DNA of 43,726 nt from positions 1-43,726 of the IMG/VR virus record IMGVR_UViG_3300016665_000253; one strand, 5' to 3'. The position numbers were made by a program, and so were the translations under genes. Origin of the DNA: a virus. The notes beneath the pieces were generated by a model. That model was not told the origin of the DNA. It saw only the letters and a list, made by a program, of their open reading frames with translations, and ran no database searches. Numbering within the stretch: position 1 is the first letter of the stretch; each line of letters starts with the position of its first letter. Of the stretch, positions 1,467 through 43,158 are shown in pieces.

Positions 1467-1742
1467 TCACGACGCCACCTCGACGTGAGCGGAGAGGGCG
1501 CGCTCGTTCTCGGCCGCGCTCTCGATCAGCACCTCCGCGAGGGACACGTCGCGCACGACCCGCTTGACGGGGTAGATCCCCGCGGTCGCCGCCGACACCG
1601 CGAGGCCACGCGATACCGCGAGGTCGCGAAGCGAGGCGAGCGCAGCGTCGCGCGACTTGCGCGTGAGGTAGTAGCGCACGTCCTGCTGCGAGGACGCGTA
1701 AAAGCACTGGTTTCGAACGCCGTACAGAGTCCGCTGGCTCAT
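1467..1742 (-). CDS. Hypothetical early protein (91 aa)
   Basis: ATG at 1742 lies 5 nt after AAGGTGA. The GTG at 1751 used by the ORF track lies inside that RBS. Confidence 0.6.
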   Translation of the reverse strand: MSQRTLYGVRNQCFYASSQQDVRYYLTRKSRDAALASLRDLAVSRGLAVSAATAGIYPVKRVVRDVSLAEVLIESAAENERALSAHVEVAS

Positions 1743-1787
1743 GTCATTCACCTTGTTATGTCGCGGCCCCGCGCCGTCGACTCCTGA

Positions 1788-1850
1788 TATGTAGCGCCCG
1801 TGCTAGCACCCGTCAACATTTATTTTCGGGTGCCGTGTCGATTTTCTGCA
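1788..1850 (-). promoter_or_regulatory. Early leftward promoter/operator module, copy 2 (internal)
   Basis: Minus strand reads TTGACG (1816-1811), a 17-nt spacer, then TACATA (1793-1788). The palindrome GTGCTAGCAC (1800-1809) sits in the spacer. An AT-rich tract and the conserved gtgtcgatttt..ctgc lie upstream. The module is about 80% identical to 3444-3510. Confidence 0.55.
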
Positions 1851-1855
1851 AGCCC

Positions 1856-2116
1856 TTATTTCTGCGGCACATCGTCAAAGAGCGAGAGCTGCACCGGCTG
1901 CGCATGGACAGGCGTCGACGGGCCGAGGTTGTGCGCGCACCACACCTGCCCGTAGGCGCACTGCGCGTCCCACCAGATGTCGGATTCGATGCCGTCGATG
2001 TCCATGCCGATACTCTGCGCAGCCTCGCGCAGCCGAGCGATGGGCCACTGGCTGTTGCGATGCGCGTCGATAGCGTACATCGCCTCAGCCAGTCGCAGCA
2101 CCTCGTCCCAAGTCAT
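1856..2116 (-). CDS. Hypothetical early protein (86 aa)
   Basis: ORF 1856..2266 trimmed to ATG 2116 (MTWDEVLRLAE..), which forms an ATGA overlap with the upstream stop. Confidence 0.55.
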   Translation of the reverse strand: MTWDEVLRLAEAMYAIDAHRNSQWPIARLREAAQSIGMDIDGIESDIWWDAQCAYGQVWCAHNLGPSTPVHAQPVQLSLFDDVPQK

Positions 2117-2361
2117 CGACGCGACAATTCCTGCGCGGCCTCGCGACGCGCCTCGGACAGCGCACGCACCGCATCGACCATCGCGTCGGGCAGTTGCTCG
2201 TGCGGCTCGCTCTCTACGATGAGCCCGTACGGTGCAGCCGCCCGCACCGTCCAGACGTGGGCGCACGTGCGGTCATCCCACGTGCGGATGATCGTCATAC
2301 GCTCGATGCAGTGCCGCGCCATCGTCGCGTCAAGCACCGCCGCTGCGTCGACGCCGATCAC
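2113..2361 (-). CDS. Hypothetical early protein (~82 aa)
   Basis: ORF 2113..2439 trimmed to GTG 2361, giving a GTGA overlap with the upstream stop. An alternative start is ATG 2322. Confidence 0.45.
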   Translation of the reverse strand: MIGVDAAAVLDATMARHCIERMTIIRTWDDRTCAHVWTVRAAAPYGLIVESEPHEQLPDAMVDAVRALSEARREAAQELSRR

Positions 2362-3050
2362 GACGCCACCTCGTCGCGCCAGACGTGCGCATCGCTCGTC
2401 GAGTAGCCGTTCCCATCGCTGTCCCCGTTCCCAGTCCAATCGATCCGCCAGCCGGGCGGCAAGGCGGCAGCGATGCGAGCGAGGTCTCGGGCCGCGTCGT
2501 CCCCGCCGTCGTCCGCGATGGCGACGATGTAGCTGCCGTCGTCCTGATAGCTGGCCGACGTCACGTCGCTCACGAGCAGGATCGCCGCCTCGACCGCGGC
2601 CACCTCGTCGCGGCTGCTCAGCTCGAGCTCGACGGCTGCGCGCCAGGCAGCGGCGTATGCCTCACGAATCGCAACGAGGCCAAGCCCGTTGACCGTCGCG
2701 CGCGAGATGCCGATGCGCGACGCAATCCAGTACAAGCCAAACCGGTCCCAGTGGTCGGCGTTGACTGCGTCGGCGTCGTCGAGGACGTCGGCCGTGCATT
2801 CGCCGCTGTTGCGGTCGTCCTCGACCATCGCATCGGCCAGGCGCACGAGGTCGTCGGCGGCGTCGTATTCCGCGACGACGAGGTCCGCGTTCAGCGCATC
2901 GACAGTCGTGCCGAGCGCGGCGGCAGCGTGCGCCTGCGATTCGTAGCCTGCATCGCAGGCCATGGCGTCGATCGCGTCGGCGGCATCCATGCCGAGAAAC
3001 GTGCCGAGATTCTGCGCCGACGTGCGATTCGTGATGGAGTAGAGCTTCAT
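2358..3050 (-). CDS. Strongly acidic early protein (230 aa); possible DNA mimic/anti-restriction candidate
   Basis: ATG at 3050 lies 5 nt after AAGGTGA (MKLYSITNRT..). Hand count gives about 42 Asp+Glu against 14 Arg+Lys. Confidence 0.6.
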   Translation of the reverse strand: MKLYSITNRTSAQNLGTFLGMDAADAIDAMACDAGYESQAHAAAALGTTVDALNADLVVAEYDAADDLVRLADAMVEDDRNSGECTADVLDDADAVNADHWDRFGLYWIASRIGISRATVNGLGLVAIREAYAAAWRAAVELELSSRDEVAAVEAAILLVSDVTSASYQDDGSYIVAIADDGGDDAARDLARIAAALPPGWRIDWTGNGDSDGNGYSTSDAHVWRDEVAS

Positions 3051-3137
3051 GGTCGTCACCTTGTGTGTAGGGCCATCATCAGGCACCGCGTCACGGTGCG
3101 ACAAGGGCGCGGGTAGCGCCCTCGTTTCGGCCTGTGC

Positions 3138-3395
3138 TCAGACGCAGCGCATCGCGGAGACGCGCGCGATCGGTTGCTGCATCGTCGGCTGATAGAACCA
3201 CTGGCCGTCGCGCTCGTAGATGCGTCCGCCCGCGATATGACCCGGACGCACGCGCCCGCTGTTCGTGTATACTGAACGGCTCACGACAGACTCGACGGTC
3301 ACGACGCGCACCATCATTGGCGACGTCGACGAGCGCGGCGCGAACGTGATTTCAATCTTGGTGCCCGCCGAGAGGTTCTGGATGTCGATGTTCAT
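3138..3395 (-). CDS. Hypothetical protein, first gene of the leftward early operon (85 aa)
   Basis: ATG at 3395 lies 5 nt after AAGGTGA (3407-3401). The track start at GTG 3404 lies inside the RBS. Confidence 0.6.
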   Translation of the reverse strand: MNIDIQNLSAGTKIEITFAPRSSTSPMMVRVVTVESVVSRSVYTNSGRVRPGHIAGGRIYERDGQWFYQPTMQQPIARVSAMRCV

Positions 3396-3443
3396 GTTCG
3401 TCACCTTGTTCGTCGCGTCGCCCCGTGCGCCGCTGACCCCCTA

Positions 3444-3510
3444 TATCTACGCCCGGTGCTAGCACGGGTCAAGAATTATTTTCGCGGTGCGTGTCGATTT
3501 TTTTCTGCGG
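3444..3510 (-). promoter_or_regulatory. Early leftward promoter/operator module, copy 1
   Basis: Minus strand reads TTGACC (3472-3467), a 17-nt spacer, then TAGATA (3449-3444). GTGCTAGCAC (3456-3465) sits in the spacer. The AT-rich aagaattatttt and gtgtcgattttttt lie upstream. Confidence 0.55.
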
Positions 3511-3533
3511 TCATTCTCGACGATTTTGCTCGC

Positions 3534-3556
3534 GTGCTAGCGCGGACCGTGCTAGC
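3534..3556. promoter_or_regulatory. Two direct GTGCTAGC operator-like sites 15 bp apart, just upstream of the RHH gene
   Basis: GTGCTAGCGC is at 3534 and GTGCTAGCCC at 3549. The ATG at 3566 has no Shine-Dalgarno upstream, so the mRNA may be leaderless or short-leader. Confidence 0.45.
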
Positions 3557-3565
3557 CCGCCGCGC

Positions 3566-3889
3566 ATGACGAAACCATCTGCCTCGCTCCCGGTCTTGTA
3601 CGCACGCGTCCCAGTCGAAACCTACGCCCTTGCGCAGCTGCTCGCCGGCGAAGGCAAGACCAGCGTCTCGCGCTGGCTCATCGATCTCATCGAGTCGCAG
3701 CGCGCGAACCTCGGCGGTCAGCCGCTGCCGCCGTACGCGCAGCCCGTCGCCGCCGAGCACGAGCCCGGCATCGCTGCCGTCGCGCCCGTCAAGCGTGGTC
3801 GTGGACGTCCGCGCAAGGTCGTCGCGACTGTTTGCGAGGACGGCCACCAGCGCGCAGCCGAAGCGGCGTGCAGCAGCGGGGATGAGTGA
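3566..3889 (+). CDS. Ribbon-helix-helix (Arc/CopG-like) DNA-binding protein with a C-terminal AT-hook; candidate switch regulator
   Basis: ORF 3491..3889 trimmed to ATG 3566. LPVLYARVPVETYALAQLLAGEGKTSVSRWLIDLIES has a strand-helix-helix pattern. KRGRGRPRKV is a canonical AT-hook core. Confidence 0.55.
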   Translation: MTKPSASLPVLYARVPVETYALAQLLAGEGKTSVSRWLIDLIESQRANLGGQPLPPYAQPVAAEHEPGIAAVAPVKRGRGRPRKVVATVCEDGHQRAAEAACSSGDE

Positions 3890-4125
3890 TGAACCGCAAG
3901 ACACGCCGCTCTCTGCTGCTCGACCTTGCGTCACGTCACATCGCCGTCGCTCGTCGTGGCGGTGCGCAAGCTATCGCCGCTCTCCGCGACGCTGCGATCT
4001 GCGCGCTGCTCGCAACGCGCGATTCGGACAACGTCGCGCTGCCTGATGACGGCCAGCAGCCCGCAGCGCTGCCCGCTGAGGACGCCGGCGACCCGCGCAT
4101 CAATGGCAAGGGCGGTGACGCGTGA
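3886..4125 (+). CDS. Hypothetical protein (79 aa)
   Basis: GTG 3886 or ATG 3889 overlaps the upstream stop. The ORF is in the track. Confidence 0.5.
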   Translation: MMNRKTRRSLLLDLASRHIAVARRGGAQAIAALRDAAICALLATRDSDNVALPDDGQQPAALPAEDAGDPRINGKGGDA

Positions 4126-4640
4126 ATCGGTTTCTGGACGACGTCATCATGGGCGCGCTGACCGCGAGCATCATCGTCGGCCTCGGCCTCGATTCGTGCT
4201 CGTGCTCATCGCCGCTGCAAGCGCAATCGCGGCCCACGCCCGTCGCAGAGCCCGGCGACCTCGAGGACGTCGCGCGCTGCCTCGTCGCGGAGAACGTGCC
4301 GGGCACCGATTGGTCGGCCATCCTCGACGTGCTTGAGCGTCGAGCTCGACGCGCGCACGTATCGGTCGGCCGCATGGCGCGCGCGTATTGCGCCGTGCAC
4401 CGCGCTGTCACGCCGACGAAGAGGCAGGCCCGCATCCGTGCGCTACCTGCGCCAAACAGCACGCGGCGGCTGCTCGACAGCTACCAGCGCGCCCTCGTCG
4501 CTGCGCGTCGCGGCGGTCCAGGCACGTGCACCGCTGACCACTGGGGCGACAGAGGCCACGACACCGCGCGAGCACTGCGCCTCGGCTGGCAGCCCGTCGA
4601 TTGCGGCGCGACAGCGAATGCTTTTTTTCGACTGCCTTGA
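4122..4640 (+). CDS. Putative exported/lipoprotein-like protein; weak resemblance to SleB-type cell-wall hydrolase fold
   Basis: GTGA overlap start. There is an N-terminal hydrophobic segment VIMGALTASIIVGLGLDSC. ARCLVAEN..WSAILDVLERRA..ANAFFRL resembles Hydrolase_2 blocks only loosely. Confidence 0.45.
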   Translation: MNRFLDDVIMGALTASIIVGLGLDSCSCSSPLQAQSRPTPVAEPGDLEDVARCLVAENVPGTDWSAILDVLERRARRAHVSVGRMARAYCAVHRAVTPTKRQARIRALPAPNSTRRLLDSYQRALVAARRGGPGTCTADHWGDRGHDTARALRLGWQPVDCGATANAFFRLP

Positions 4641-4656
4641 CGGACGCGCGCGCGTA

Positions 4657-4666
4657 GTGCTAGCAC
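4657..4666. promoter_or_regulatory. GTGCTAGCAC operator palindrome within an extended cgcgcg-flanked palindrome; possible rightward promoter
   Basis: cgcgcgtaGTGCTAGCACtcgcgcg. TTGACG at 4637-4642 lies 18 nt upstream of TAGCAC (4661-4666). Confidence 0.4.
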
Positions 4667-4688
4667 TCGCGCGAACCAGCAGCCGTTG

Positions 4689-4763
4689 CAGCGGTGAGCC
4701 GCCTGCCGCGTCGACTATCTTCCCCCCCCGTTGCGTTGGCGCAATGGCAGGCGGCTCCGCTGG
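4689..4763 (+). other. Long imperfect inverted repeat (18-bp stem, ~38-nt loop with a C8 run) in the leader of the winged-helix gene
   Basis: cagcggtgagccgcctgcc (4689-4707) pairs with ggcaggcggctccgctgg (4746-4763) with one bulge. The loop contains tccccccccg (4721-4730). Confidence 0.6.
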
Positions 4764-4803
4764 TTCAATTGATGACCCCTGCAAGGGTCGAGGAGACGGG
4801 ACC

Positions 4804-5205
4804 ATGAAACAGACATCGATTGATGCGTATCTGGAAGCTGTAGAGTCTGGTGAATTGACGCGGGCGCGTGAGGTCGTGCTTGAGCTGTTGCGCGCAGAGG
4901 GGCCGCTCACGGGTCGCGAGGTCGATGAGCGTTTGCGCAGCGTATCTGCGCACAAGCGTTTGTCCGAGCTGCGAAGTCACGGTTACGCGCAGCCGCAGGG
5001 ACGTCGCCAGTGCCGCGTGTCGGGCCGCTTCGCCGAGCAGTGGGTCGCCTATACGCAGCGCACGACGGGCCCGCACGTGCGGCCGCTGGTGCCATCTGCG
5101 AGTGACCTTCGCGCGGCAGCTGCGTTCCTACGCGAGCGTGCGCACGAGGACGACGAGGTGCTGCAGCGCGTTGCGGCATGGCTCGCGCTCAAAGGCGCGC
5201 GATGA
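4804..5205 (+). CDS. Winged-helix (MarR/ArsR-like) DNA-binding protein
   Basis: ATG 4804 lies 8 nt after GAGGAG. VVLELLRAEGPLTGREVDERL..AHKRLSELRSHGY matches a wHTH pattern. Confidence 0.55.
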   Translation: MKQTSIDAYLEAVESGELTRAREVVLELLRAEGPLTGREVDERLRSVSAHKRLSELRSHGYAQPQGRRQCRVSGRFAEQWVAYTQRTTGPHVRPLVPSASDLRAAAAFLRERAHEDDEVLQRVAAWLALKGAR

Positions 5206-5621
5206 TCGACTCAGTCCAGCGCGCGCGGATATGGGCGCTTATCCGCGCCGACGTCGCAGCGTGCGAGAGCGGCGACTCGCTGCCGCCGTGGTACGGCCAG
5301 CCCGAAGACGCGCGTCTCGAGGCTGCGTGGCGCAAGCTCGTCGCCGTCGACGTCAGCGACCGCACGCGGCACATCGACGAGGTGCAGGCCGACCTGCTGC
5401 GCGCTCGTGCGGAGTGCGACGTCGCGCTTGCGGTGCGTGATGGCGAGTGGCGTGACGCGCTCGACCAGCCGCGCCCGACGTGGCGGCGGCTCATCGCGGA
5501 GATGCGGCGGCTACCAGCGGCAGACCTCGCGCAGTTGTCTCAGAACGACGACACCATGGGTGCGCTTGCACGCTGGGCGCTGCGGCCATCCAATCGCACA
5601 AAGAGTGCGGACGTCCGTTGA
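5202..5621 (+). CDS. Hypothetical protein (139 aa)
   Basis: ATGA overlap with the upstream stop (MIDSVQRARIWAL..). Confidence 0.5.
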   Translation: MIDSVQRARIWALIRADVAACESGDSLPPWYGQPEDARLEAAWRKLVAVDVSDRTRHIDEVQADLLRARAECDVALAVRDGEWRDALDQPRPTWRRLIAEMRRLPAADLAQLSQNDDTMGALARWALRPSNRTKSADVR

Positions 5622-5666
5622 CGCACCTCACATCGTCGCGTAGCGTTGATGCGGCTCAATAGAAAT

Positions 5667-5695
5667 GGGCTCGCGGCGGTGAGACGCCCGAGCCC
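5667..5695 (+). terminator. GC-rich hairpin after the first rightward gene group (no U-tract)
   Basis: gggctcgcggcg-gtgaga-cgcccgagccc has 11 bp pairing with one bulge. It is followed by gtgaccgag, so intrinsic-terminator status is uncertain. Confidence 0.3.
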
Positions 5696-5757
5696 GTGAC
5701 CGAGAAAATGGAGGTTTCCCGATGCGGTTTCATATCTCATTTTACGTGGTCCGTCCA

Positions 5758-5767
5758 GTGCTAGCGC
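5758..5767. promoter_or_regulatory. GTGCTAGCGC operator-like site upstream of the replication initiator gene
   Basis: The motif lies 26 nt upstream of ATG 5793, with the AT-rich catatctcattttacg just upstream. Confidence 0.4.
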
Positions 5768-5792
5768 GCGCCTTTGAAGGGCGGATGCACTG

Positions 5793-6767
5793 ATGGTCTG
5801 GTTCAGAGTTGACGACGGGTTCCACGACCATCCGAAGGTCGAGGCGTTGCTTACGGGCAAGCACGCGAGCGACGCGATCGCGCTCTGGACGCTGGCTGGA
5901 TCGTGGTGCGGAAAGCACCTGACCGATGGTGAGATCAGCGCGTCCAAGGTCGCGCGGCTCGGCATCCGGCATCATGCGAAGGCCGCGCAGGAGCTGGTTC
6001 GCGTACGACTTTGGGAGGAAACCGAGACTGGTTTCCGCTTCCATCAGTGGACCGAACGACAGGCTGCGCGTGCAGACGTTGACCAAACGCGACGCGAATC
6101 AGCCGACAGAATGCGACGGTTGCGCGCTAATCAGCGGGCACGCCGCGAAGAGACGGGCCGCGAATCTATTGATGAATCTGGAAATGTTCGCGCGAACAGC
6201 ATCGAGCACGTTCGCACGAACGACGCGCGAAGTTCGCGAGTGCAAGTCTCCGAGCGTTCGTCAACCCATTCCATACCATTCCATTCCGTACCATACCAAA
6301 ACCAAAACCAAGACACCGCGCCTGCTCGCGAGACACTCGCGAGTGTGGGGCGAGACATTGACGAGACACTCGCGACACCCTCGCGCCTGACCTGTACCTC
6401 CGACCTCCGACCTGTACCAGCGATCACAACCCCGACGACGGTGGACGAGTCGCTCCGCTTCCCCGATCCAGATGCAGAAAATTTCAACGAGCGCGATCTT
6501 GAGCGTGCTGTCAGCGACGTGCGTGGTACGGAATGGAGAATCCCAACCGCTCCTCACCATCGTCGACAAGCACGCGAGACGGCTGCGCTGATCATGGCCT
6601 TCGCCCATAAAGGCGGATACGACCCGCACGCAATCGCGAGAGCGGCCTACGACGAGTGGCGGAAGGCGTCGAAGTCGATCGATCCGATGGTGTGGTGCGC
6701 GGACTGGGCTGTGAAACTGCCGCCACCACCGAAGAAGCAGGAGAAGTGGCGTGACCTCGAAGGCTGA
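5793..6767 (+). CDS. Replication initiator/replisome organiser (lambda O-like arrangement with internal origin)
   Basis: The N-terminus MVWFRVDDGFHDHPKV..ALWTLAGSWC resembles phage replication-protein N-domains. The gene precedes and overlaps dnaB, and a low-complexity linker coincides with DNA iterons. Confidence 0.6.
   Translation: MVWFRVDDGFHDHPKVEALLTGKHASDAIALWTLAGSWCGKHLTDGEISASKVARLGIRHHAKAAQELVRVRLWEETETGFRFHQWTERQAARADVDQTRRESADRMRRLRANQRARREETGRESIDESGNVRANSIEHVRTNDARSSRVQVSERSSTHSIPFHSVPYQNQNQDTAPARETLASVGRDIDETLATPSRLTCTSDLRPVPAITTPTTVDESLRFPDPDAENFNERDLERAVSDVRGTEWRIPTAPHHRRQARETAALIMAFAHKGGYDPHAIARAAYDEWRKASKSIDPMVWCADWAVKLPPPPKKQEKWRDLEG
6265..6420. repeat. Putative origin of replication: iterons, palindromes and an AT-rich stretch inside the initiator gene
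   Basis: ccattccataccattccattccgtaccatacc. aaaacc x2. GAGACACTCGCGA x2 (6331, 6364). 12-bp palindrome CACTCGCGAGTG (6335-6346). GACCTGTACC x2 (6390, 6410). Confidence 0.6.
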
Positions 6768-10896: not shown

Positions 10897-11308
10897 TGTC
10901 TGCTTCACCGTGCCCGGCCCTGTTGTGCCTTGGCAACGCGCCGCATCGGTGGGCACGCGCCGCTTCACGTCGACGAAGCAACGCAGCTACCAGCGCACCG
11001 TGCGCCTCGTGGCGATGGCATCGCGACCGCGTGGGCCGTGGTTGCCGTCGAAGGCATCGCGCTATCGCGTGGACATCGACGCGTATCTGCCCGACGAGCG
11101 CCGCCGCGACCTCGACAACATCGCAAAGACCATCCTCGACGCGCTCAACGGCGTGCTCTACCTCGACGACAGCCAAGTGGTGACGCTGCTCGTCGCGACG
11201 CATATCGACCGCGCAGAGCCTCGCGTCGTCGTCGCCGTGCGCGAGGTCGAGCGCGAGCAGGTAGCCCCGCCAAAGAGCCGCCAGCGCGCCGCAAAGGTGG
11301 TCGCGTGA
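10886..11308 (+). CDS. rusA: RusA-family Holliday junction resolvase
   Basis: RRDLDNIAKTILDALNGVLYLDDSQV matches the RusA catalytic Asp block. Length is 140 aa. Confidence 0.85.
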   Translation: MNLDVCFTVPGPVVPWQRAASVGTRRFTSTKQRSYQRTVRLVAMASRPRGPWLPSKASRYRVDIDAYLPDERRRDLDNIAKTILDALNGVLYLDDSQVVTLLVATHIDRAEPRVVVAVREVEREQVAPPKSRQRAAKVVA

Positions 11309-12333
11309 AGCGGCCTGCGCGCAGCCTGCTTAGCATCGACGTCCGACAGGTGCTTGCCGAGCACGTCGCGGAGGTCGAGCTCGTCGCGAGCCTTGAGGCC
11401 GCGCCCGTCATCGACCCGGCTATCGCACGCCTCGACGACCGCGCCATCGAGACGATCAGCGCCGAGCACTCGGCTCGTCGCGCGCGACTGGCAGACGAGG
11501 CGACACGCATGGCGCTGCTCATCCTCGCTCGCGAGTCAAAGGGCGAGTCACCACGCCCGCCGTTCCGTGGCGTGCTCGGCGCGTTGCGCGCTCTCGACGA
11601 GGTGCGCGTCGATGGTGCGCCCGTGCGCTCGTCGTCGTCGCCGTCGCGCTTTGAGCCAGAGCATCGCGGCGCAGGCGGCACGGCATCGGGCGATGTCGCG
11701 CAGCGTGCCGTCGAGCGCATCGCGCCGGTGTCGCGCCTGTGGGCGCAGTGCTTGGCGCAGGGTTGGACGCTGACCACGTTTCCCGCGCTAGCACGGCTGA
11801 CAGCCGAGCAGGCCCGCGAGGTCTGCATATGGGCGACGCTCGGCATACCAGGCGCGCGCGTCCCGCTACAGCACCCGCAGCCGATGCGCGGCGAGGGCGC
11901 ACGGCAGAAGCAGCCGCGCTACAAGCTCGCAGTCCGCGGCAAGCCACGCGTCGGCGAGGACGTCGACCCCTTCGATGACCCATCACCACGCGACGTCGCC
12001 GAGCACGCGAGCACGGTGTTCGGCGTCGAGGTGCCGGTGGGACACGTCGTCGCACTCCGACGCGAGGGCATCGGCGAGCTATATTCACGGCTGGCAGGGC
12101 GCGGGCTGATACCGCGAGATGGGAGGCTGGACGCTATGGCAGCGACACGAGCGACGCCGTGGGACGTCGAGGGATGGAAAGAGATTGCGAGCACGCTGGG
12201 ATGCTCGGAGCGCACTGCGCAGCGCGTGGCGTCGCGACCGGAGCGGCCTGCGCCGACCTATCGCACGTTTGTCGGCGTCGTGGCCGTGCGCGCAGAGTTG
12301 GCCGAATGGATGCGCGGCGAGATGAAGCGATGA
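11305..12333 (+). CDS. Hypothetical protein with a C-terminal HTH-like segment; positional candidate for a late-gene regulator
   Basis: GTG 11305 lies 4 nt after AAGGTGG and forms a GTGA overlap with the rusA stop. WKEIASTLGCSERTAQRVAS is HTH-like. The gene lies between rusA and the terminase genes, as Q does in lambdoid phages. Confidence 0.5.
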   Translation: MKRPARSLLSIDVRQVLAEHVAEVELVASLEAAPVIDPAIARLDDRAIETISAEHSARRARLADEATRMALLILARESKGESPRPPFRGVLGALRALDEVRVDGAPVRSSSSPSRFEPEHRGAGGTASGDVAQRAVERIAPVSRLWAQCLAQGWTLTTFPALARLTAEQAREVCIWATLGIPGARVPLQHPQPMRGEGARQKQPRYKLAVRGKPRVGEDVDPFDDPSPRDVAEHASTVFGVEVPVGHVVALRREGIGELYSRLAGRGLIPRDGRLDAMAATRATPWDVEGWKEIASTLGCSERTAQRVASRPERPAPTYRTFVGVVAVRAELAEWMRGEMKR

Positions 12334-26175: not shown

Positions 26176-27017
26176 TGCCGCGTGACCTCTACTCGTGCGC
26201 GTGGGATTTTGCGGCGCTGAACGCTGGCGTCGTCGACGCGTCCAACGCTGCCGTCATCGCGGGCACCATCAGCGGAAATCTCGGATTTGAGACTGGCCTT
26301 TACATGCACGGCGACGTTCAAGGCATCGCTGACGGCGTCTCCATCCTCGCGTTCAGCACGGCCGTCGAAGGGCTCATCACCGGCCTCACGTGCACATTCT
26401 CGCTGTCGACACTCAAGTACACGCTCAGCGCGGCAGGTACGTTCAGCGTTACCTGGACGGGCGCGGCTGGCATCGTGATGCGTGATTTGCTCGGCTTTGA
26501 TGCAAACCTCAGCGCGGCGAGCAGCTACACGTCGACATTGCGCCCCAAGTACCTCGTCGTCTCGCGGCTCGCGGGCCAGTCGGAGGTGCACGAGACGTAC
26601 GAGCCTGGCGGCCGCATCTCCTACGCAGAGAGCGACAACGGACAGGCGTACAGCACGCACCCTGTCGAGTTGCCGACCTATCGCGACTGGACGCAGCCTT
26701 TCGAGACACAAGCCGGTCCGACCGATGGCGAGTGGAACGCGAGCGGCTCAGTCGGCGGCGCGGCTGTCCGCACGGCCGACGTGGGCGCTGCGACGAAGGT
26801 GACGTGGACGTGGGAGGCGCTCATTAAGCATCTTCGCGCGACGTATCCTTTTGCGCTTGTGGACCGCGCGACGTCAACTGAGGGCGAGGGCCAGCTCTAC
26901 AAAATGCGAGGCGAGGCAGCGCACTTCGACCCGACGCGCATCACGGCCGACTACGACGGGCACTGGTCGATTCCGTTTCGCACGCGTCAGCTTGACGCTA
27001 CCACGCCTGCCGTATGA
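26172..27017 (+). CDS. Distal tail protein candidate
   Basis: GTG 26172 or ATG 26175 overlaps the tape-measure stop. The call is by position. Confidence 0.45.
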   Translation: MMPRDLYSCAWDFAALNAGVVDASNAAVIAGTISGNLGFETGLYMHGDVQGIADGVSILAFSTAVEGLITGLTCTFSLSTLKYTLSAAGTFSVTWTGAAGIVMRDLLGFDANLSAASSYTSTLRPKYLVVSRLAGQSEVHETYEPGGRISYAESDNGQAYSTHPVELPTYRDWTQPFETQAGPTDGEWNASGSVGGAAVRTADVGAATKVTWTWEALIKHLRATYPFALVDRATSTEGEGQLYKMRGEAAHFDPTRITADYDGHWSIPFRTRQLDATTPAV

Positions 27018-29680
27018 GTTTCGTCGACGTCATCGCGCGCGGTAGCGGGGCAATCGCGTATCGCCTCGTTATCGCAGGCCACCCGCTCGAGTTCGTCAGC
27101 GCGTCGTCGCTCATCGGCGCTGGCACTGAGGACCGCGAGCGAATCGGCGGCCTCGAGGCGCGCAGCATCCAGTGGTCGGAGACGCTTGACCCTGCCGCCG
27201 TCAAGCTGCGTGCGCAGGGCTTCACAGCGCGTATCGTCGACGACGGCAGTCACCGCACTGGCAACTCGTTCGTGCGGCAGCCGAGTCGCATCAACTACCT
27301 GACCGCGTCGGTCACGTCGGGCACCGTCGCAATCCCGATGGCGAATACCAACCACGCCAACGGCGACATCTTTTACCTCGGAAACGAGTGCTTCAAGATC
27401 ACCAGCGGTGGCGGCACCGCTGCGCCCTCGTGCTCGGGCACGCGCGGCTATCGCGACAGCATCGCGACGGCGCACTATGTCGACCCGACGCTGGGCCTCT
27501 CGCGGCCCGAAATCACGTTTGAGGAGACGGGCCAGTACAACGGTCGTCCGAGCATCGAGGGCTCGCTCGCGTACCTGTACGCGTACGGCGACGGCGAGAC
27601 GGGCGACGGGACGATTGTGTGGCGCGGAGTCGTCGCAGCGCAGCCGAAACTGCGCGATCTGACCACGTGGGAGGTCGAGCTCGACAGCGTCGCGAGCGTG
27701 TTGGACCAGACGCTTGGCGCGGACCTCGCAGAGCCGTCGATGCTGCGCGGCATCAACTACAACGCGCAGACGGCTCCGACGCTGCAAATCAGCATTCTCG
27801 CGGGCGATGATATTGACAGCGCCATCGCTCACACAGCCACAGTCGGCGGTGTCGACCTCGCCGGCTACTACGAGACGCAGGAGGATTTCTGCGATGCGCT
27901 CAATGCACTTATCCGTACAGCCTCGAGCACGTGGGGCACGCACGCGCTGAACCGCACGTCGGGCGAGCGGCCGACGCTGAAAGCCACGACGACAGACACG
28001 GGCGCGTGGACGCTGGTCTATTCCACGCCGAGTACGTCGCATCGATACTGCAAAGTCGACAGCGAGAACGCATGGACGTCTCGCGTCGATCCTGAGTTTA
28101 GCAGTTCACTGTTCTTGCGTCGTGATGATGGCGTCCGCGTCGATACTGTCGGAGCGAGTTCTAGCTACACGTGCCAGTCGTTCGACCGCGTAGACGGCGC
28201 AGGTACTGTGCCGCGCGGATTCATCGGTGAGCAGACCGACGCATACACCGACACGGTCTACATCGGCGGCACGCTGTCGCTGACCGCAGGCGACACCATC
28301 AGCATCGAGTGGCCCGCGTTTGATGGCAAAGAGGCCTTTACGCGCGACTACTACGTGACCGCCTGGGACTCGACGCTACGCAAGGCGACAGTGCGTCGTC
28401 GTCGCGTGCATGGCCCGCGGCCCGGCGTCGTCGACCGCTACTACACGGCCTCGTCGGTGCCTAGCGTCACGACCTCGCGCAGCTACGTGACGTCGGGCAC
28501 GTTTGCAGACTTCCTGACCGCGCTGCTGACCGATTCGCCGGAATATTCGGCGGCTGGACGGATGCCGCTGGTCACTGCTGAGCACGTCGACACGACCAGC
28601 GTCATCGGCGATGTCGTAGCAATTGCACTCGGTCGCGACTGGCTTTCAGCGCGCACGTACCTCGGCACCAGCGACGTCTCGCTCGCGAAGATGATCGAGG
28701 AAGAATGCAAGCTGTACGGGCTTGTCCCATCGATCACGTTTGATGGTCGCTTGTCCTACGTGCCCTTTCGCGTGGGCGCTAGCACTGAGTTTGCGGCCTA
28801 CACCATCGACGAATCGAAGAACCTTAGCGGCGCGCAGATGCCCGGCTTCGAGCCGTCGGCGTTTGGCCTGTTAAACACCATTCAGCTCAAGACGGGCTTT
28901 GACCCGAAGACAAGCAAGCACATCGGCCGCACGTTTATCGTGCGCGACTCGGCGGCGCTTTCGCGCAATCCGCTGCCGCGCATGATGAAAGTCGAGCCGC
29001 GCTCGTCGTGGGCCGATGACCTCGCCATCCCGTACAGCGAAGTCCTCGCAATGGCGCAGACGTGGCTTGGCGTGCTCGGCGCGGCTTACCAGACGATCAC
29101 CGTCGCGTGCCGCATCGATGCCATCTTCGCGAGCATCGGCCAGCAGGCTGCCGTTACGGTCGCGCAGCTGCCGAATACGCTCGACGGCGGGCGCGGGATA
29201 GTCCTCGCATCGGGCGTCGTCATCGGCCGCCGCGTGCGCCTGCTAGACGCAATCGTCGAGCTCACCCTGCTGACGACGCAAGTTCGCGTCGCGGGATATG
29301 CGCCGTCGTCGCTGGTCGACACGGTGACGCTCGTCAGCGGTAGCAACTACGACATCGTGCTGAATGTGTCGCAGCCTGGCGGTTACGCGTACGTCGAGAA
29401 GTGGCAGGTTGGCGACGAGGCTGAGCTGCTGCAATACGACACGGCCGCTCCGACATCGGTGACCGCGACCATCACCGCCGTCGATGTATTTACGTCGACG
29501 GTGACTGCCACGCTGAGCGCAGCGCCACCATCGGGCACGCTGACGCTGGAATACCGCGATGCGCCGAACGTCATCGCGCAGCAAGAGCGTTACGCATTCA
29601 TCGCGCTCGAGGATGGCACCGGCGGCAACGTCATCGAGTTTGCGTCGGGCAACGTGCCGCCGCGTCAATTCGCGAGCTGA
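27014..29680 (+). CDS. Large tail tip/baseplate protein (888 aa)
   Basis: ATGA overlap. This is the largest ORF and sits downstream of the tape measure. Confidence 0.55.
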   Translation: MSFVDVIARGSGAIAYRLVIAGHPLEFVSASSLIGAGTEDRERIGGLEARSIQWSETLDPAAVKLRAQGFTARIVDDGSHRTGNSFVRQPSRINYLTASVTSGTVAIPMANTNHANGDIFYLGNECFKITSGGGTAAPSCSGTRGYRDSIATAHYVDPTLGLSRPEITFEETGQYNGRPSIEGSLAYLYAYGDGETGDGTIVWRGVVAAQPKLRDLTTWEVELDSVASVLDQTLGADLAEPSMLRGINYNAQTAPTLQISILAGDDIDSAIAHTATVGGVDLAGYYETQEDFCDALNALIRTASSTWGTHALNRTSGERPTLKATTTDTGAWTLVYSTPSTSHRYCKVDSENAWTSRVDPEFSSSLFLRRDDGVRVDTVGASSSYTCQSFDRVDGAGTVPRGFIGEQTDAYTDTVYIGGTLSLTAGDTISIEWPAFDGKEAFTRDYYVTAWDSTLRKATVRRRRVHGPRPGVVDRYYTASSVPSVTTSRSYVTSGTFADFLTALLTDSPEYSAAGRMPLVTAEHVDTTSVIGDVVAIALGRDWLSARTYLGTSDVSLAKMIEEECKLYGLVPSITFDGRLSYVPFRVGASTEFAAYTIDESKNLSGAQMPGFEPSAFGLLNTIQLKTGFDPKTSKHIGRTFIVRDSAALSRNPLPRMMKVEPRSSWADDLAIPYSEVLAMAQTWLGVLGAAYQTITVACRIDAIFASIGQQAAVTVAQLPNTLDGGRGIVLASGVVIGRRVRLLDAIVELTLLTTQVRVAGYAPSSLVDTVTLVSGSNYDIVLNVSQPGGYAYVEKWQVGDEAELLQYDTAAPTSVTATITAVDVFTSTVTATLSAAPPSGTLTLEYRDAPNVIAQQERYAFIALEDGTGGNVIEFASGNVPPRQFAS

Positions 29681-31700: not shown

Positions 31701-33509
31701 ATGACGCGGCGAGCTGCTGGCGCGCGCACTGACCGCCGCGTCATCAACAATCCTGAGCCGTCGTTTACGCCGACCGCCACATCGATGTTCGCGTGGTATC
31801 GCGAGACGATGAGCGTGTCGCAGTGGACTGACCTGACCGCAGGCGCGCGCCACGCGACGCAGGCCGTTGCGGGCAATCAGCCGACGTACACGGCCAGCGA
31901 CGCTGACTTCAACGGACAGCCTTCGCTGACGTTCACGACCGACGATTACATGAACTGCGGCGGTGTCGCGAGCGCGTGGTCGTTCCTGCACAACGCGACC
32001 GATGCGACGCTGTACATGGTCTTTCGGCCGTCGACGGCGACCGGCGAAACCAAGTACCTCTGGAACTCAATCGGCGATTTGACAGCCGCTAATAACGGCG
32101 TGTCGTTGCTCTACCACGCGACGACGCAGACGGGCGAGGTCTTCATCGGCAACGGCGGCGTCTCGCGCTGCGCGACGATGCTAGCCGCTGACTCCGAAGT
32201 TCTGCGCGACACCGCGCACGTGCTCGTCTACCGCAAGAACGCAAGCGGCTGGCAGATGTGGATTGACGGCGTGTTGCTGCTCAGCGGTGAGTACAACGGC
32301 GTGCCGTCCAACACAGCAGCAGCGGTGACGCCTTCGATTGGCGGATATTCGGCCTACTCCACGACGCGCCAGTTTGAAGGCAAGATGGCCGAGATTGGCG
32401 TGATGCAGTCGTATGCGTCAGTCGCTGCAATCACGGCTTACTGCCGCGCGCGGTACAACATCGCGACGACGCGCACGATTACGCATCGGAGCTCGTTTCA
32501 AGACGCGGTCAACGTCAATGCGGGTGCGCCGACTAACGGCCCGAAGGTCTGGTCGTACTACGGCAGCGTGTCGGCGACGCCGGGCACGACGAAGCAAGTT
32601 GCGCGCATCGTCTCGAGAGGCACCGCGTACAACGTCCAGACGCGCACCAACGGCCAACCGCAAAGCGTGACGGTCGCTGCTGACAACCGCTATCGCGTGC
32701 TGACCGTGCCGCTTGCGCCGAGTGGTCTGCCGACTGATGGCCGCGTCATCAAGGCGCTGCTGATCGTCGGCGAGAGCTGCGCGCGCGGACGCTCGTCGGT
32801 CGTTGGCGTTCCTACGGGCTATCCTCCTGCTGCGGGCGCGATTTACGCGTGGACGGGCGAGGACACGACGCTTGCCCTGCCAGCGATTGAGCAGCCTGTG
32901 TACACGTATCCCGTCGACGCGATTCTCAATGCAGACAGCGGCACTCCCGGCGTCGGCCCCGGTGGACTTGGCTCGTGGTACTTGCAAGTCGCAGAGAGCT
33001 CGTCGGCTGTCTGGCTGTCGGTGAATTGCGGCAAGGGCTCCACGACGTCGACCAACTGGAACAGCTCGACCACAAGCACCAACGCCATCCTCGGCGCGAC
33101 CATCGCGCGCGTGCGTCGCATCACCGATGCGGCAGCGGCATTCGGGCAGACCGTGCAATGGGTCGGCATCTACGTCGACCAGGGCATCAACGACGCAGTG
33201 AGCGGCACGCCGACGTGGGATACGAACTGGTCTGCTGTCGAAACGGCGCTGCGTGCGGAGCCGGGTCTTGCGACGGTGCCGCTGGTGTTCCGCAAGGAGC
33301 CGACGCTTGAGCCTACGGACGTCGCATATCCCGGCTGGTCTGCGGTGCGCACGCAGCAGGACGGCTGGCAGAAGGGCACGTCGCCAAAGCGCATCATGAT
33401 CAGCATCGACCCGCTGCCTGACTACGTCGAGGCTGCGAAAGTGCATCCCGGCACAGTCGCCAACGCGCAAATAGGCGCGGCCATCGCAGCCGCGATCAGG
33501 AGTGCATGA
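31701..33509 (+). CDS. Tail fibre/spike protein with a LamG-like lectin domain and a C-terminal SGNH/sialate-O-acetylesterase-like domain
   Basis: The LamG-like block is QPSLTFTTDDYM..LYMVFRP..WQMWIDGVLL..FEGKMAEIGV. The esterase-like blocks are LLIVGESCARG (compare GQSNmxG), VDQGINDA (compare QGEsD) and a distal VHPG. Confidence 0.55.
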   Translation: MTRRAAGARTDRRVINNPEPSFTPTATSMFAWYRETMSVSQWTDLTAGARHATQAVAGNQPTYTASDADFNGQPSLTFTTDDYMNCGGVASAWSFLHNATDATLYMVFRPSTATGETKYLWNSIGDLTAANNGVSLLYHATTQTGEVFIGNGGVSRCATMLAADSEVLRDTAHVLVYRKNASGWQMWIDGVLLLSGEYNGVPSNTAAAVTPSIGGYSAYSTTRQFEGKMAEIGVMQSYASVAAITAYCRARYNIATTRTITHRSSFQDAVNVNAGAPTNGPKVWSYYGSVSATPGTTKQVARIVSRGTAYNVQTRTNGQPQSVTVAADNRYRVLTVPLAPSGLPTDGRVIKALLIVGESCARGRSSVVGVPTGYPPAAGAIYAWTGEDTTLALPAIEQPVYTYPVDAILNADSGTPGVGPGGLGSWYLQVAESSSAVWLSVNCGKGSTTSTNWNSSTTSTNAILGATIARVRRITDAAAAFGQTVQWVGIYVDQGINDAVSGTPTWDTNWSAVETALRAEPGLATVPLVFRKEPTLEPTDVAYPGWSAVRTQQDGWQKGTSPKRIMISIDPLPDYVEAAKVHPGTVANAQIGAAIAAAIRSA

Positions 33510-33739
33510 TGCCGCAGACGCTGACGATTGGTGACGTGTTGGTGTGCCTGACGTACTGCGCTGTCGACGACGAGCGCGCACTCGACCTCGAGCTGCGCTA
33601 CGTCGACGGCGGCGTGGGCGTCGGCGCGTATCGCGCTAGCACGGGCCTCGTGCTTGATGCGGGCGCATTGTCGCCGTCGCTGCGTGCGTTGCTCGATGGT
33701 GCGTGTGCGGACGCGCTCGCGACGTGGAACGCGCAATGA
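33506..33739 (+). CDS. Hypothetical protein (77 aa)
   Basis: ATGA overlap. The ORF is in the track. Confidence 0.45.
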   Translation: MMPQTLTIGDVLVCLTYCAVDDERALDLELRYVDGGVGVGAYRASTGLVLDAGALSPSLRALLDGACADALATWNAQ

Positions 33740-33754: not shown

Positions 33755-34105
33755 ATGAACATCTGGCAACTCATCGCCGCGCTTGCGGGCACGCCGTCTG
33801 TCGCGCTTGTCATCAGGTCGATCTTTCGGCGGCTTGATGGCAGTGCGCGCGCGACGTCTCGCGAAGTCGACTATCTTCGCGGCGAACTTGTGCGCGAGCG
33901 CCAGCAGTGCGCCGACGAGAAGGCCGAGCTCGAAGCGCGCATCGCGTTTCAGGTCGAAGTGCACGAGACGCAGCGCAAGCAGATCAACTCGCTTGAACGG
34001 CGCAACATCGAGCTCAAGGCCGAGTTAGACGTCGCGCATCAAGACCTTATCGGGATGCGCGCTGTGATGCGATGGGCTACGCATCAATCAGGAGACGGCG
34101 AATGA
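33755..34105 (+). CDS. Membrane-anchored coiled-coil protein (i-spanin- or holin-regulator-like)
   Basis: The N-terminal hydrophobic segment IWQLIAALAGTPSVALVI is followed by a heptad-like charged helix. Confidence 0.45.
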   Translation: MNIWQLIAALAGTPSVALVIRSIFRRLDGSARATSREVDYLRGELVRERQQCADEKAELEARIAFQVEVHETQRKQINSLERRNIELKAELDVAHQDLIGMRAVMRWATHQSGDGE

Positions 34106-34338
34106 CGAAGAAGAAGCCGACCAAGTCTGCTCCGCACCGTCGCGTGCGAATCACGCTCGCGATGGTTGCAGGCTGGCTGACGAGCGTGTCGATGGTGCTC
34201 GCGGCCGTGCTGCCGGTGCTGCCGGAATCGACGCCGTCGTGGCTGCGCGAGGTGCTCGCCGTGCTCGCGGTCGGCATCGCAGCGACGCTGCAATCGTGGC
34301 GCACGCCGTCGTCGCCGGAAGGGCAGGGCGAGACATGA
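34102..34338 (+). CDS. Holin candidate (two transmembrane segments, 78 aa)
   Basis: ATGA overlap. Basic N-terminus MTKKKPTK, TM1 ITLAMVAGWLTSVSMVLAAVLPVL, TM2 VLAVLAVGIAATL. Confidence 0.5.
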   Translation: MTKKKPTKSAPHRRVRITLAMVAGWLTSVSMVLAAVLPVLPESTPSWLREVLAVLAVGIAATLQSWRTPSSPEGQGET

Positions 34339-34859
34339 TCGCGCTCTTGTCCTCGCGCGAATTCCAGCGTCGTGGCGTCATTGCACTCGGCGTGGCGTGG
34401 CTCGTCGCGCTTGCGGGCCTCGTGCTCGCGGCGTGCTTGACCGGCTGCGGGCCCAGCGCGCTCGCCATCCACGCAGGCGCTGCCGACGTCGCTGGCGTCG
34501 CGATCAACGCTACCGGCGACGAGCTCGTGGCCGCGCGCGGTCGTGCGCTGCATGAGGCCGTTGACGAGGCCCCGTCGCGCGAGGTCGCGGAGAGCGCCGT
34601 CGAGGTCGTCGTCGCGCGATTTCTGCCAGCGCTTGAGGCGTACGACGCGCTGCGCTTGACACACGATGCCTACGTCGACGCGCTTGTCCTCGCGGCGGCT
34701 GGTGCGCCTGTTGACGTTGGACGCTGGGCGCATCTCGCGTCGCGACTTGTCCAGGCATGGCAGGCGTGGGCGTCTGCGGGGCGCTCGCTGGGCGTCGACG
34801 TCGTCGGCCCACCTGCTGCGCTGGTAGGCGTCGCTGCGGCCGCTGGAGGTGCCCTATGA
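34335..34859 (+). CDS. Lipoprotein (174 aa), lysis-cassette associated
   Basis: ATGA overlap. Signal peptide with lipobox LVLAAC/LTGC. Confidence 0.5.
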   Translation: MIALLSSREFQRRGVIALGVAWLVALAGLVLAACLTGCGPSALAIHAGAADVAGVAINATGDELVAARGRALHEAVDEAPSREVAESAVEVVVARFLPALEAYDALRLTHDAYVDALVLAAAGAPVDVGRWAHLASRLVQAWQAWASAGRSLGVDVVGPPAALVGVAAAAGGAL

Positions 34860-35390: not shown

Positions 35391-35993
35391 ATGACGTGCG
35401 AGCAGCCGGTGGTGGATGGTCGGACGCTTTCGCCTGCGTGCTGGTGGCAACCGCCGCAGGAAGGCTGTCGCAAGCGCAAGTCGCCTCCGCGCGCGGTGGT
35501 CTGGCACTGGACGGCAGGCGAGCGTCCTGCGGAGGGCGTCTGCTCGACGCTGCGCTCGCGCAAGCTCTCGATCCACTACGTCATCGACTTCGACGGCCGC
35601 ATCGTCGAGTGCGCCGACCCGGCGACGACGGTGGCGTACCACGCAGGCACGGCCAACGAGTGGACCGTGGGCGTCGAGATTGTCTCGCGTGGCGTTCAGC
35701 CTGCGCTGCCTACGCGTCCTCGTGAGCCGGTATCGGTGCGCGTGCACAATCGACCTGTCGCTGCGCTGAACTTCTCGTTCGCGCAATACCTGTCGATTCA
35801 GTCGCTCGCGGAGCAGCTCTCGCACGACCTCGGCATTCCACGCGTGTGTGCGAGCTATGAGCCGCAGGTGATGACGCCAGGCGCGCAAGCAGCGTTTAGC
35901 GGTCATCTCGAGCACGCGCACCTGAGCGCAGGCAAGGTCGACTCGGGCGGTTTGGTCATGCGCTTCCTGCGGGAGCGCTGGGATATCAAGTAA
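35391..35993 (+). CDS. Endolysin: N-acetylmuramoyl-L-alanine amidase (Amidase_2/PGRP, T7-lysozyme-like)
   Basis: GGAG RBS. VVWHWTAGE..LSIHYVIDFDGRIVE..VAYHAGTANEWTVGVEI matches Amidase_2 zinc-ligand blocks. Confidence 0.8.
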   Translation: MTCEQPVVDGRTLSPACWWQPPQEGCRKRKSPPRAVVWHWTAGERPAEGVCSTLRSRKLSIHYVIDFDGRIVECADPATTVAYHAGTANEWTVGVEIVSRGVQPALPTRPREPVSVRVHNRPVAALNFSFAQYLSIQSLAEQLSHDLGIPRVCASYEPQVMTPGAQAAFSGHLEHAHLSAGKVDSGGLVMRFLRERWDIK

Positions 35994-42758: not shown

Positions 42759-43158
42759 CGGTGTCGTTTGCTGCGTCGCTGGCCCAGCTATCGCCAGGGC
42801 GCGCGCCGCGCTTGCGCTCGATGAGCGGGCCGTCGCCGCTGTCGCGCTTGCTGTCGAGTAGCGTGAGGTCATTGACCGTGACTTCAAGGCCAAAGCCTTC
42901 GGTGCCGTCTTTGCGCGTGAACTTGCGCGGCTTGAGTCGGCCATTGACCGCAACGCGCGTGCCCTTCTTGAGAAACTGCGCGACGCCAATCTTGCCGTCG
43001 AACAGCGTCAAGTCGAAGAACGTCGCCTCGTCCTCACGGCGATAACCGCTGACGGCCAGCGCGACGTTGCACACGGACTTGCCGTTCTTTGTCTGGCGCA
43101 CCTCTGCATCGCGCACGATGCGCCCGGTCAAGTTGATGTTGTTCTGGTCTGCGCTCAC
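42742..43158 (-). CDS. ssb: Single-stranded DNA-binding protein
   Basis: OB-fold start NINLTGRIVRDAEVRQTKNGKSVCNVALAV and acidic tip DTDDIPF. GTGA overlap with the recT stop. Confidence 0.9.
   Translation of the reverse strand: MSADQNNINLTGRIVRDAEVRQTKNGKSVCNVALAVSGYRREDEATFFDLTLFDGKIGVAQFLKKGTRVAVNGRLKPRKFTRKDGTEGFGLEVTVNDLTLLDSKRDSGDGPLIERKRGARPGDSWASDAANDTDDIPF

Follow-up and report, generated by a model that had tools for sequence, protein, structure and literature searches.

A CTAG-centred palindrome in the early promoters of an uncultured phage is the probable operator of an autoregulated ribbon-helix-helix protein

The DNA considered here is IMG/VR virus record IMGVR_UViG_3300016665_000253, and its whole stretch of 43,726 nucleotides is referred to below as the window. 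The early region of the window carries a 10-bp palindrome centred on CTAG, GTGCTAGCAC, together with close variants of it, and these boxes are likely the operators of an autoregulated repressor of the ribbon-helix-helix (RHH) type encoded by the gene at 3566–3889. Four observations underlie this reading: the boxes are in excess over chance, they occupy particular positions relative to the early promoters, their layout is conserved among related genomes, and the type of box covaries with the RHH protein. The early genes point leftward to the left of position 3395 and rightward from 3566, with boxes on both sides of the divergence. A first-pass annotation of the window had proposed a repressor-operator network; its core idea is borne out by the positions of the boxes and by the relatives, and its details are amended below with respect to the binding protein, the site at 5758 and a promoter that has no box.

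The box palindrome is real and occurs far more often than chance would allow. GTGCTAGCAC is present in three copies, at 1800, 3456 and 4657, compared with 0.03 expected from dinucleotide-preserving shuffles, none of 100 of which reached three. The variant GTGCTAGCGC is present five times (0.25 expected), at 3534 and 5758 on the plus strand and at 11785, 28776 and 33633 on the minus strand, and a second variant, GTGCTAGCCC, has one site at 3549. A search for the palindrome with one mismatch allowed recovers exactly these nine sites. The first-pass coordinates of all three sequences proved exact on recount, and the claim that the 10-mers are far rarer by chance held on the shuffled background. 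The shared 8-mer GTGCTAGC gives 12 strand hits versus 1.47 expected and is the top over-represented 8-mer of the genome under an order-3 Markov model (z = 12.7). Every one of the six CTAG tetranucleotides in the first 6 kb falls in a box. The consensus over 32 distinct sites from the window and the relatives with the same RHH type (group A, defined below) is near-invariant at positions 1–8 and 10, with A or G at position 9 and free flanks. Literature matches to the palindrome were cloning primers only.

By itself, the hexamer GCTAGC shows no enrichment (13 seen, 10.95 expected), a conclusion that the first-pass annotation had reached with slightly inaccurate counts of about 11 seen and about 15 expected. 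This count bears on the possibility that the motif is a target of restriction-modification or methylation, whether by an enzyme of the NheI type acting on GCTAGC or by the N6/N4 methylase of the phage. Type II enzymes are known to recognise GCTAGC, the window encodes a methylase of family PF01555 (10147–10896), and CTAG is depleted in the rightward coding genes at 5793–40745 (19 seen, 29 expected from synonymous-codon shuffles). However, the hexamer is neither enriched nor avoided and selection falls on its flanks, and the sites cluster at fixed promoter positions. The explanation was rejected for the phage methylase because the relative L001, in which the methylase gene is absent, keeps every box; overall, a methylation target is very improbable.

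The boxes lie at distinct positions within the early promoters (Table 1). These promoters were assigned by reading the sequence, and a consensus scanner missed them because their -10 hexamers have no final T. First, each of the two leftward promoters, P_L1 upstream of the gene at 3138–3395 (minus strand) and P_L2 upstream of the gene at 1467–1742 (minus strand), has a perfect palindrome between its -35 and -10 hexamers, designated O_L1 and O_L2, respectively. The layout of P_L2 recurs in relatives, and O_L1 is retained in L023, L024, L025 and L035, with one-base variants in L034 and L036. Second, a perfect box at 4657–4666 overlaps the -10 hexamer of the rightward promoter P3 and supplies it, an arrangement also present in L001, L022 and L034. 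Four of six group-A genomes have this box; no box was found at the P3 -10 in L036, L021 or the other RHH groups, B to D. Third, two imperfect boxes, O_R1 and O_R2, precede the RHH gene itself. The first-pass placement of sites in promoter spacers, over a -10 and before the regulator gene therefore stands, with the exception of the site at 5758, which is not in a promoter. Its statement that the motif marks every control region is too strong, as the promoter-like sequence at 5618–5646 has no box. Short dyads or tandem repeats that overlap the regulated promoters, in most cases also that of the repressor itself, are characteristic of RHH repressors, and the layout of the predicted sites fits this pattern.

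Each leftward promoter forms part of a 75-nt direct repeat that also includes the box and an A/T tract, AATTATTTT. The tract is conserved across all RHH groups and is a possible UP element or a possible docking site for an AT-hook. The block of small genes between the two cassettes (~1850–3390) is absent in L001, and L021, L034, L035 and L036 have other genes in its place. The cassettes resemble recombination boundaries around a variable slot.

The two boxes at the RHH gene suggest a further role for the motif. Only 7 nt separate the end of TGC+TAGCCC, within O_R2, from the ATG at 3566. This start codon lacks a Shine-Dalgarno sequence, in contrast to neighbouring genes with their AAGGTGA or GGAGG; O_R2 therefore resembles the extended -10 of a leaderless mRNA and probably acts as such for the RHH transcript. 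A (G/C)TGCTA(G/C)C element is found 7–8 nt before the ATG in most relatives of groups A to D, and at 9–10 nt in some members of group C, and none of the RHH gene starts with this element has a Shine-Dalgarno sequence. Because nearly all RHH groups keep it, even group C, whose palindrome differs, the element is probably the -10 region of the RHH promoter. At P3, TGC+TAGCAC sits 18 bp past TTGACG. A typical extended -10 reads TGn followed by TAnnnT and lies 5–9 nt upstream of the transcription start; the final T is absent at both candidate elements. Since the group-A operator consensus coincides with the -10 element, the boxes at 3549 and 4657 probably serve as operator and extended -10 alike.

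It could be argued that the motif serves chiefly in promoter recognition, as an extended -10 (TGn+TAGCNC) read by a host or phage-modified RNA polymerase, and is no repressor site. Consistent with this, the element precedes an ATG without a Shine-Dalgarno sequence even in group C, the P3 box gives the only plausible -10 at 16–18 bp from TTGACG, and four of four rightward sites are oriented with transcription. The leftward boxes, however, are not explicable as -10 elements because they are located between a good -35 and a separate -10. A promoter element has no need of the perfect dyad symmetry seen at three of the sites, and the hexamers TAGCAC, TAGCGC and TAGCCC have no conserved final T. Moreover, groups C and D have a different palindrome in the same spacers while the TGCTAC element persists; operator and promoter functions are therefore separable, and both can coexist at 3549 and 4657. 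A motif that is chiefly a promoter element is unlikely, and operators of the RHH protein remain the preferred reading.

The proposed regulator begins MTKPSASLPVLYARVPVETYALAQLLAGEGKTSVSRWLIDLIESQR, followed by a linker and then KRGRGRPRK, a weak AT_hook match. Arc/MetJ-type RHH domains are obligate dimers, with an N-terminal beta-strand and two helices in the about 45 residues of each monomer. A profile of nine diverse N-terminal domains of the RHH protein family was used as the query for fold searches. In the PDB, this profile found the Arc repressor as its top match (E 0.013), and eight of the nine top matches were Arc/RHH entries. Alignment by hhalign to the Arc sequence gave a probability of 67% and a P of 5e-5, and it placed the Arc ribbon P-Q-F-N-L-R-W-P on P-V-L-Y-A-R-V-P. 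Further matches, to the HicB and RelB RHH models and to 1Y9B, were weak and below threshold. A low-confidence AF2 monomer model (mean pLDDT 58) has an extended N-terminus and helices at 17–28 and 34–48. Taken together, the protein is assigned to the Arc-like RHH fold with moderate confidence. About 60 homologues were found, all of them metagenomic. A profile search of a representative library with the RHH protein returned mostly AT-hook proteins, and a scan of genome contigs gave only irrelevant Clostridia metagenome-assembled genomes, matched by the AT-hook pattern. The combination of an RHH domain with an AT-hook was not encountered as a described architecture in the literature searched.

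Comparisons among relatives provide evidence that box and regulator belong together. Group A comprises seven genomes with the same ribbon, LPV[L/I]YARVP: the window, L001/L024, L021/L023, L022/L025, L034, L035 and L036. In all seven, a box lies in the spacer of each leftward promoter, and two boxes exactly 15 bp apart precede the RHH start codon. The P_L and P3 boxes are mostly perfect dyads and O_R1 is GTGCTAGCGC in seven of seven, a grading consistent with an order of shut-off that ends with the regulator's own promoter. Group B, with the N-terminal arm MPDTPSSK, has GCGCTAGCAC, (C/A)TGCTAGATC and CTGCTAGCCG upstream of the RHH gene and GTGCTATATC in the P_L spacer; in general, relatives with the arm PDTPSSK have TGCTAG-type boxes. 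Groups C and D, with the arm M[R/T]KPPSVQ, have 12-bp CTAG-centred palindromes of the CTGTCTAGACAG type in the P_L spacer and also in the spacer of a rightward promoter, TTGCGC-17/18-TA(C/G)CCG, as seen in more than seven contigs. Across the predicted operators of groups A to D, the type of box thus tracks the residues at or just before the start of the ribbon. Between L027 (group B) and L030 (group C), DNA identity is 91% over RHH codons 9–60, 61% over codons 1–8 and 69% over the control region, and the products of the two genes after the RHH gene are 97% identical. RHH ribbons are compact, transplantable specificity determinants (PMC3413123), and specificity in the ribbon and N-terminal residues is what this comparison between genomes suggests.

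Several points weigh against the boxes being operators of this protein. No Pfam, PHROG or NCBIfam model scored above its cut-off for the product of 3566–3889, Foldseek found no match with the AF2 model of the monomer (pLDDT 58), and the assignment to the RHH fold is statistically weak. The proposed -10 hexamers have no canonical final T. Groups B and C share the ribbon core LPALFVRLP, yet their boxes differ; specificity would therefore need residues just before the ribbon. The arm adjoins the operators, so that the covariation could arise from linkage rather than function, and group D has both box types. Finally, the element before the ATG in group C, GTGCTACCCG, stays TGCTA-like though the operator differs, so that the signal in group A may stem in part from the promoter and not from the operator.

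The shared ribbon core of groups B and C also leaves room for a second specificity factor, and the boxes might instead be bound by another protein: the product of 4804–5205, annotated in the first pass as a winged helix-turn-helix (wHTH) protein and named there, with the RHH protein, for binding tests, another phage protein such as that of 3889–4125, or a host factor. Most of the early proteins have no recognisable family and could hide a DNA binder, and the genes at 3889–4125 and 4122–4640 always accompany the RHH gene. However, four genomes with four or five boxes each (L021, L022, L034 and L036) do not have the wHTH gene, and its product was rejected as the binder on this ground. The homologues of 3889–4125 and 4122–4640 are those 97% identical in protein between L027 and L030, even though boxes and RHH N-terminus differ, and a host factor would not predict a box type that follows the phage RHH arm. 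A binder other than the RHH protein is accordingly considered improbable.

The wHTH nature of the 4804–5205 product was not confirmed: its sole match is phrog_1123, a family of unassigned function, and its AF2 model is uninformative (pLDDT 49.5). The gene occupies a variable cargo slot downstream of P3, which in L034 and L036 contains longer unrelated open reading frames (ORFs) after the g12 homologue and in L002, as read from the sequence, a helicase-like ORF and a DNA methylase gene. Some relatives have a different methylase in this slot, at times with a helicase-like ORF (for example L002 and a 12.5-kb contig carrying P0021), and methylase genes seem to behave as mobile cargo across the family. 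The P3 leader (4667–4800) is 95% identical to that of L001 and folds into a long hairpin (-65.6 kcal/mol, z -2.8); the homologue of its stem, CCAGCAGC...GCTGCTGG, persists in relatives with other cargo genes and has no Rfam match.

A plausible course of events for the RHH repressor can be proposed. After infection, the host RNA polymerase would fire the sigma-70-like early promoters. Accumulating RHH protein would take the perfect palindromes first, namely those in the spacers of P_L1 and P_L2, which serve the recombination and SSB genes, and that over the -10 of P3, with one dimer setting its two-stranded beta-ribbon into the major groove, centred on the CTAG dyad of the 10-bp box. Occupied boxes would exclude polymerase from these three promoters. 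At higher concentration the protein would also fill the imperfect O_R1 and O_R2 over its own, probably leaderless promoter and so repress itself, and the AT-hook may hold on to the conserved A/T tracts that adjoin the boxes. The scans revealed neither an integrase nor a repressor of the CI type, and the switch therefore resembles those of Arc or Cro, which close down early expression, more than a demonstrated lysogeny repressor.

The copies of GTGCTAGCGC in three late genes, whose positions in the first-pass annotation were correct, are also in excess over chance. Three are seen compared with 0.14 expected when the 39 rightward genes are shuffled among synonymous codons (0 of 2000 shuffles reach three), and the set of three intergenic box variants gives three versus 0.19 under the same shuffling. 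In relatives, the same 10-mer is found at other, non-homologous late positions eight times, about five of them independent, versus 0.46 expected in 197 kb. Nevertheless, we lean towards regarding the intragenic copies as non-functional by-products of drift and local sequence context, with the real system confined to the early region. The sites are preserved only in relatives at least 89% identical in DNA, and at 70–84% identity the sequence and even the amino acids differ. L045, a group-A genome with the same RHH type, has no late GTGCTAGCGC copies in 21 kb, and no -35-like, promoter-like or A/T-tract features neighbour the sites in the window. If any single mismatch to the palindrome is allowed, the genome-wide expectation is already about two.

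Sequence context may contribute to these copies, as the CTAGs that remain in coding DNA lean towards TGCTAG anyway (53% versus 20% expected). A second 10-mer, CTGCTAGACG, likewise occurs three times on the plus strand (6907, 7099 and 29240; 0.12 expected). It encodes Leu-Leu-Asp with a rare CTA codon at which relatives use CTC or CTG, a lineage-specific synonymous change. The intragenic copies are real and most likely weak or non-functional secondary sites. There is a small chance that they and the TGCTAG words created by synonymous change are selected secondary sites of the RHH/AT-hook protein with quick turnover between relatives. If so, a further layer of the switch would extend over the whole genome, with these sites acting as roadblocks, as a sink for the repressor or as points of DNA bridging, in loose analogy to mycobacteriophage stoperators although based on an RHH protein.

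The site at 5758 is a lineage-specific box outside any promoter. It is present only in the window and a 98%-identical relative, and other genomes, including L021 of group A, have GCTAGAT(T/C)GC. The first-pass annotation had called it intergenic, which is correct with respect to the large genes, but it lies within a conserved 23-codon upstream ORF (5722–5793), equipped with a GGAGG ribosome-binding site and uninterrupted in every relative examined. The stop codon of this ORF overlaps the next ATG (TGATG), which suggests translational coupling with the following gene, the one before DnaB. The stretch 5618–5795 is 98% identical to L001, and in a hairpin at 5667–5695 variation between relatives is confined to the loop.

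Table 1. Boxes, promoters and associated features of the window.
Feature	Position	Strand	Description
75-nt direct repeat, copy 1	1771..1845	+	Cassette of promoter, box and A/T tract; 76% identity to copy 2
P_L2	1788..1816	-	-35 TTGACG (1816-1811), 17-bp spacer, -10 TACATA (1793-1788)
Box O_L2	1800..1809		Perfect palindrome GTGCTAGCAC in the P_L2 spacer
75-nt direct repeat, copy 2	3427..3501	+	Same cassette type as copy 1
P_L1	3444..3472	-	-35 TTGACC (3472-3467), 17-bp spacer, -10 TAGATA (3449-3444)
Box O_L1	3456..3465		Perfect palindrome in the P_L1 spacer
A/T tract AATTATTTT	3474..3482		Adjoins the P_L1 -35; counterpart at P_L2, 1818-1826
Box O_R1	3534..3543	+	GTGCTAGCGC; invariant together with flank CTCGC in 7/7 group-A genomes
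Box O_R2	3549..3558	+	GTGCTAGCCC; 15 bp from O_R1
RHH gene	3566..3889	+	107-aa protein; Arc-like RHH N-terminal domain (residues ~8-46) and AT-hook KRGRGRPRK; proposed repressor
P3	4637..4666	+	-35 TTGACG (4637-4642), 18-bp spacer, -10 TAGCAC (4661-4666)
First-pass wHTH gene	4804..5205	+	Cargo gene downstream of P3; not the box binder
Promoter-like sequence	5618-5646	+	TTGACG-17-TAGCGT; no box; conserved in L002 and L003
Box-like site	5758..5767	+	GTGCTAGCGC; ~110 nt downstream of the promoter-like sequence, inside the 5722-5793 ORF
Intragenic copy	11785..11794	-	GTGCTAGCGC in gene 11305-12333
Intragenic copy	28776..28785	-	GTGCTAGCGC in the 888-aa gene 27014-29680
Intragenic copy	33633..33642	-	GTGCTAGCGC in gene 33509-33739

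The window (43.7 kb, 66% G+C) is the complete, circularly permuted genome of an uncultured phage: the relative contig L021 reads unbroken across the junction of base 43726 with base 1, and a RecT-like gene is cut by the window ends (43155–43726 joined to 1–332). Recognised genes include Gp157, RecT-like and SSB on the leftward side, large terminase, Mu-like portal, gpI and gpT head proteins and an amidase on the rightward side, and also DnaB, the N6/N4 methylase and RusA. Pfam and PHROG scans of about 50 ORFs, among them several small ORFs without a family, found no integrase and no CI, Cro or helix-turn-helix (HTH) repressor families, and Rfam and tRNA scans of the window were empty. A megablast search of INPHARED with the early 8 kb found no cultured phage similar at the DNA level, tblastn of the RHH protein against the same database gave no match, and terminase and portal are at most 33% identical to those of cultured phages. 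The phage is apparently non-integrating and has no cultured relative.

Two further features of the late region were observed. A minus-strand ORF at 34077–34733 from a simple gene call is probably spurious; on the plus strand, this stretch contains ORFs that begin with ATG, resemble membrane proteins in sequence and lie upstream of the amidase gene (35391–35993). The minus strand carries nine copies of CCGAGCGTGA (0.44 expected), with seven in one late gene (37368–38459; positions 37528–38308) and the others at 16451 and 39726; these repeats resemble a recurring coding motif of a structural protein.

The analysis provides a testable regulatory map for an uncultured lineage, consisting of five early promoters, their operators and the likely regulator. 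It also offers a natural series in which the first residues of an RHH protein and its operators change together while the rest stays ~91% identical. Such a series may be useful for decoding the DNA specificity of ribbon and arm and for designing orthogonal small repressors.

Among known systems, the closest parallels are the Arc and Mnt proteins of the immI region of Salmonella phage P22, which like the protein proposed here are small phage-encoded RHH proteins. Arc is made early and represses an early promoter and its own synthesis, and it binds a 21-bp operator as a dimer of dimers. Here, in contrast, the boxes are compact 10-bp dyads, single at three promoters and paired only at the promoter of the protein itself. 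The sequence similarity to Arc is marginal, Arc has no counterpart of the C-terminal AT-hook, and the proposed control acts on the principal divergent early promoters and not on a side-circuit for an antirepressor, with no lysogeny module found. N-terminal residues set the operator specificity of Arc and Mnt, and residue-swap experiments on the two are mentioned in PMC3413123; similarly, it is the first eight codons that covary with box type here.

Two plasmid systems share other properties. CopG (RepA) of pMV158, an RHH protein, represses its own synthesis: it binds an operator that overlaps its promoter and so keeps RNA polymerase away (PMC2724298). Its core base contacts span 5'-GCAC-3' in a pseudosymmetric element (PMC3413123); the outer arms of the box described here are GTGC and GCAC. 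Unlike the system proposed here, CopG acts in a plasmid copy-number circuit on a single promoter, through a 13-bp operator bound by several dimers, and it has no detectable sequence match with the phage protein. ArtA of pSK41 is a master regulator of several promoters, and one RHH dimer of it suffices to specify a short site (PMC2777438), which parallels the short site per dimer and the several promoters under one RHH protein that are proposed here. However, the ArtA site is TGACA rather than a CTAG dyad, its N-terminal arm mediates dimer-dimer contacts rather than specificity, and its setting is a conjugative plasmid and not a phage.

The proposed circuit as a whole resembles that of lambda CI and Cro, with divergent early promoters, repeated dyad operators that match their consensus to graded degrees, an autoregulated regulator and related phages with different operator-regulator pairs. 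The lambda cI mRNA from PRM is leaderless, as the regulator mRNA probably is here. The two differ in that no HTH CI/Cro pair or integrase was found in the window, in that the boxes are 10 bp with contiguous conservation as opposed to the 17-bp lambda operators, and in that the two divergent promoters do not share overlapping operators. The stoperators of Cluster A mycobacteriophages, bound by the repressor (gp71 in L5), likewise lie outside promoters, including in the late region. They number ~20–30 per genome and are asymmetric 13-mers oriented with transcription in short intergenic gaps, whereas only three sites lie outside the early region here, and these are intragenic, near-palindromic and not conserved beyond close relatives. 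The kind of mechanism, a small repressor acting on dyad operators in early promoters, is thus well known from textbooks; what is new are its members, the sequence of the box, the fusion to an AT-hook and the natural covariation of arm and operator.

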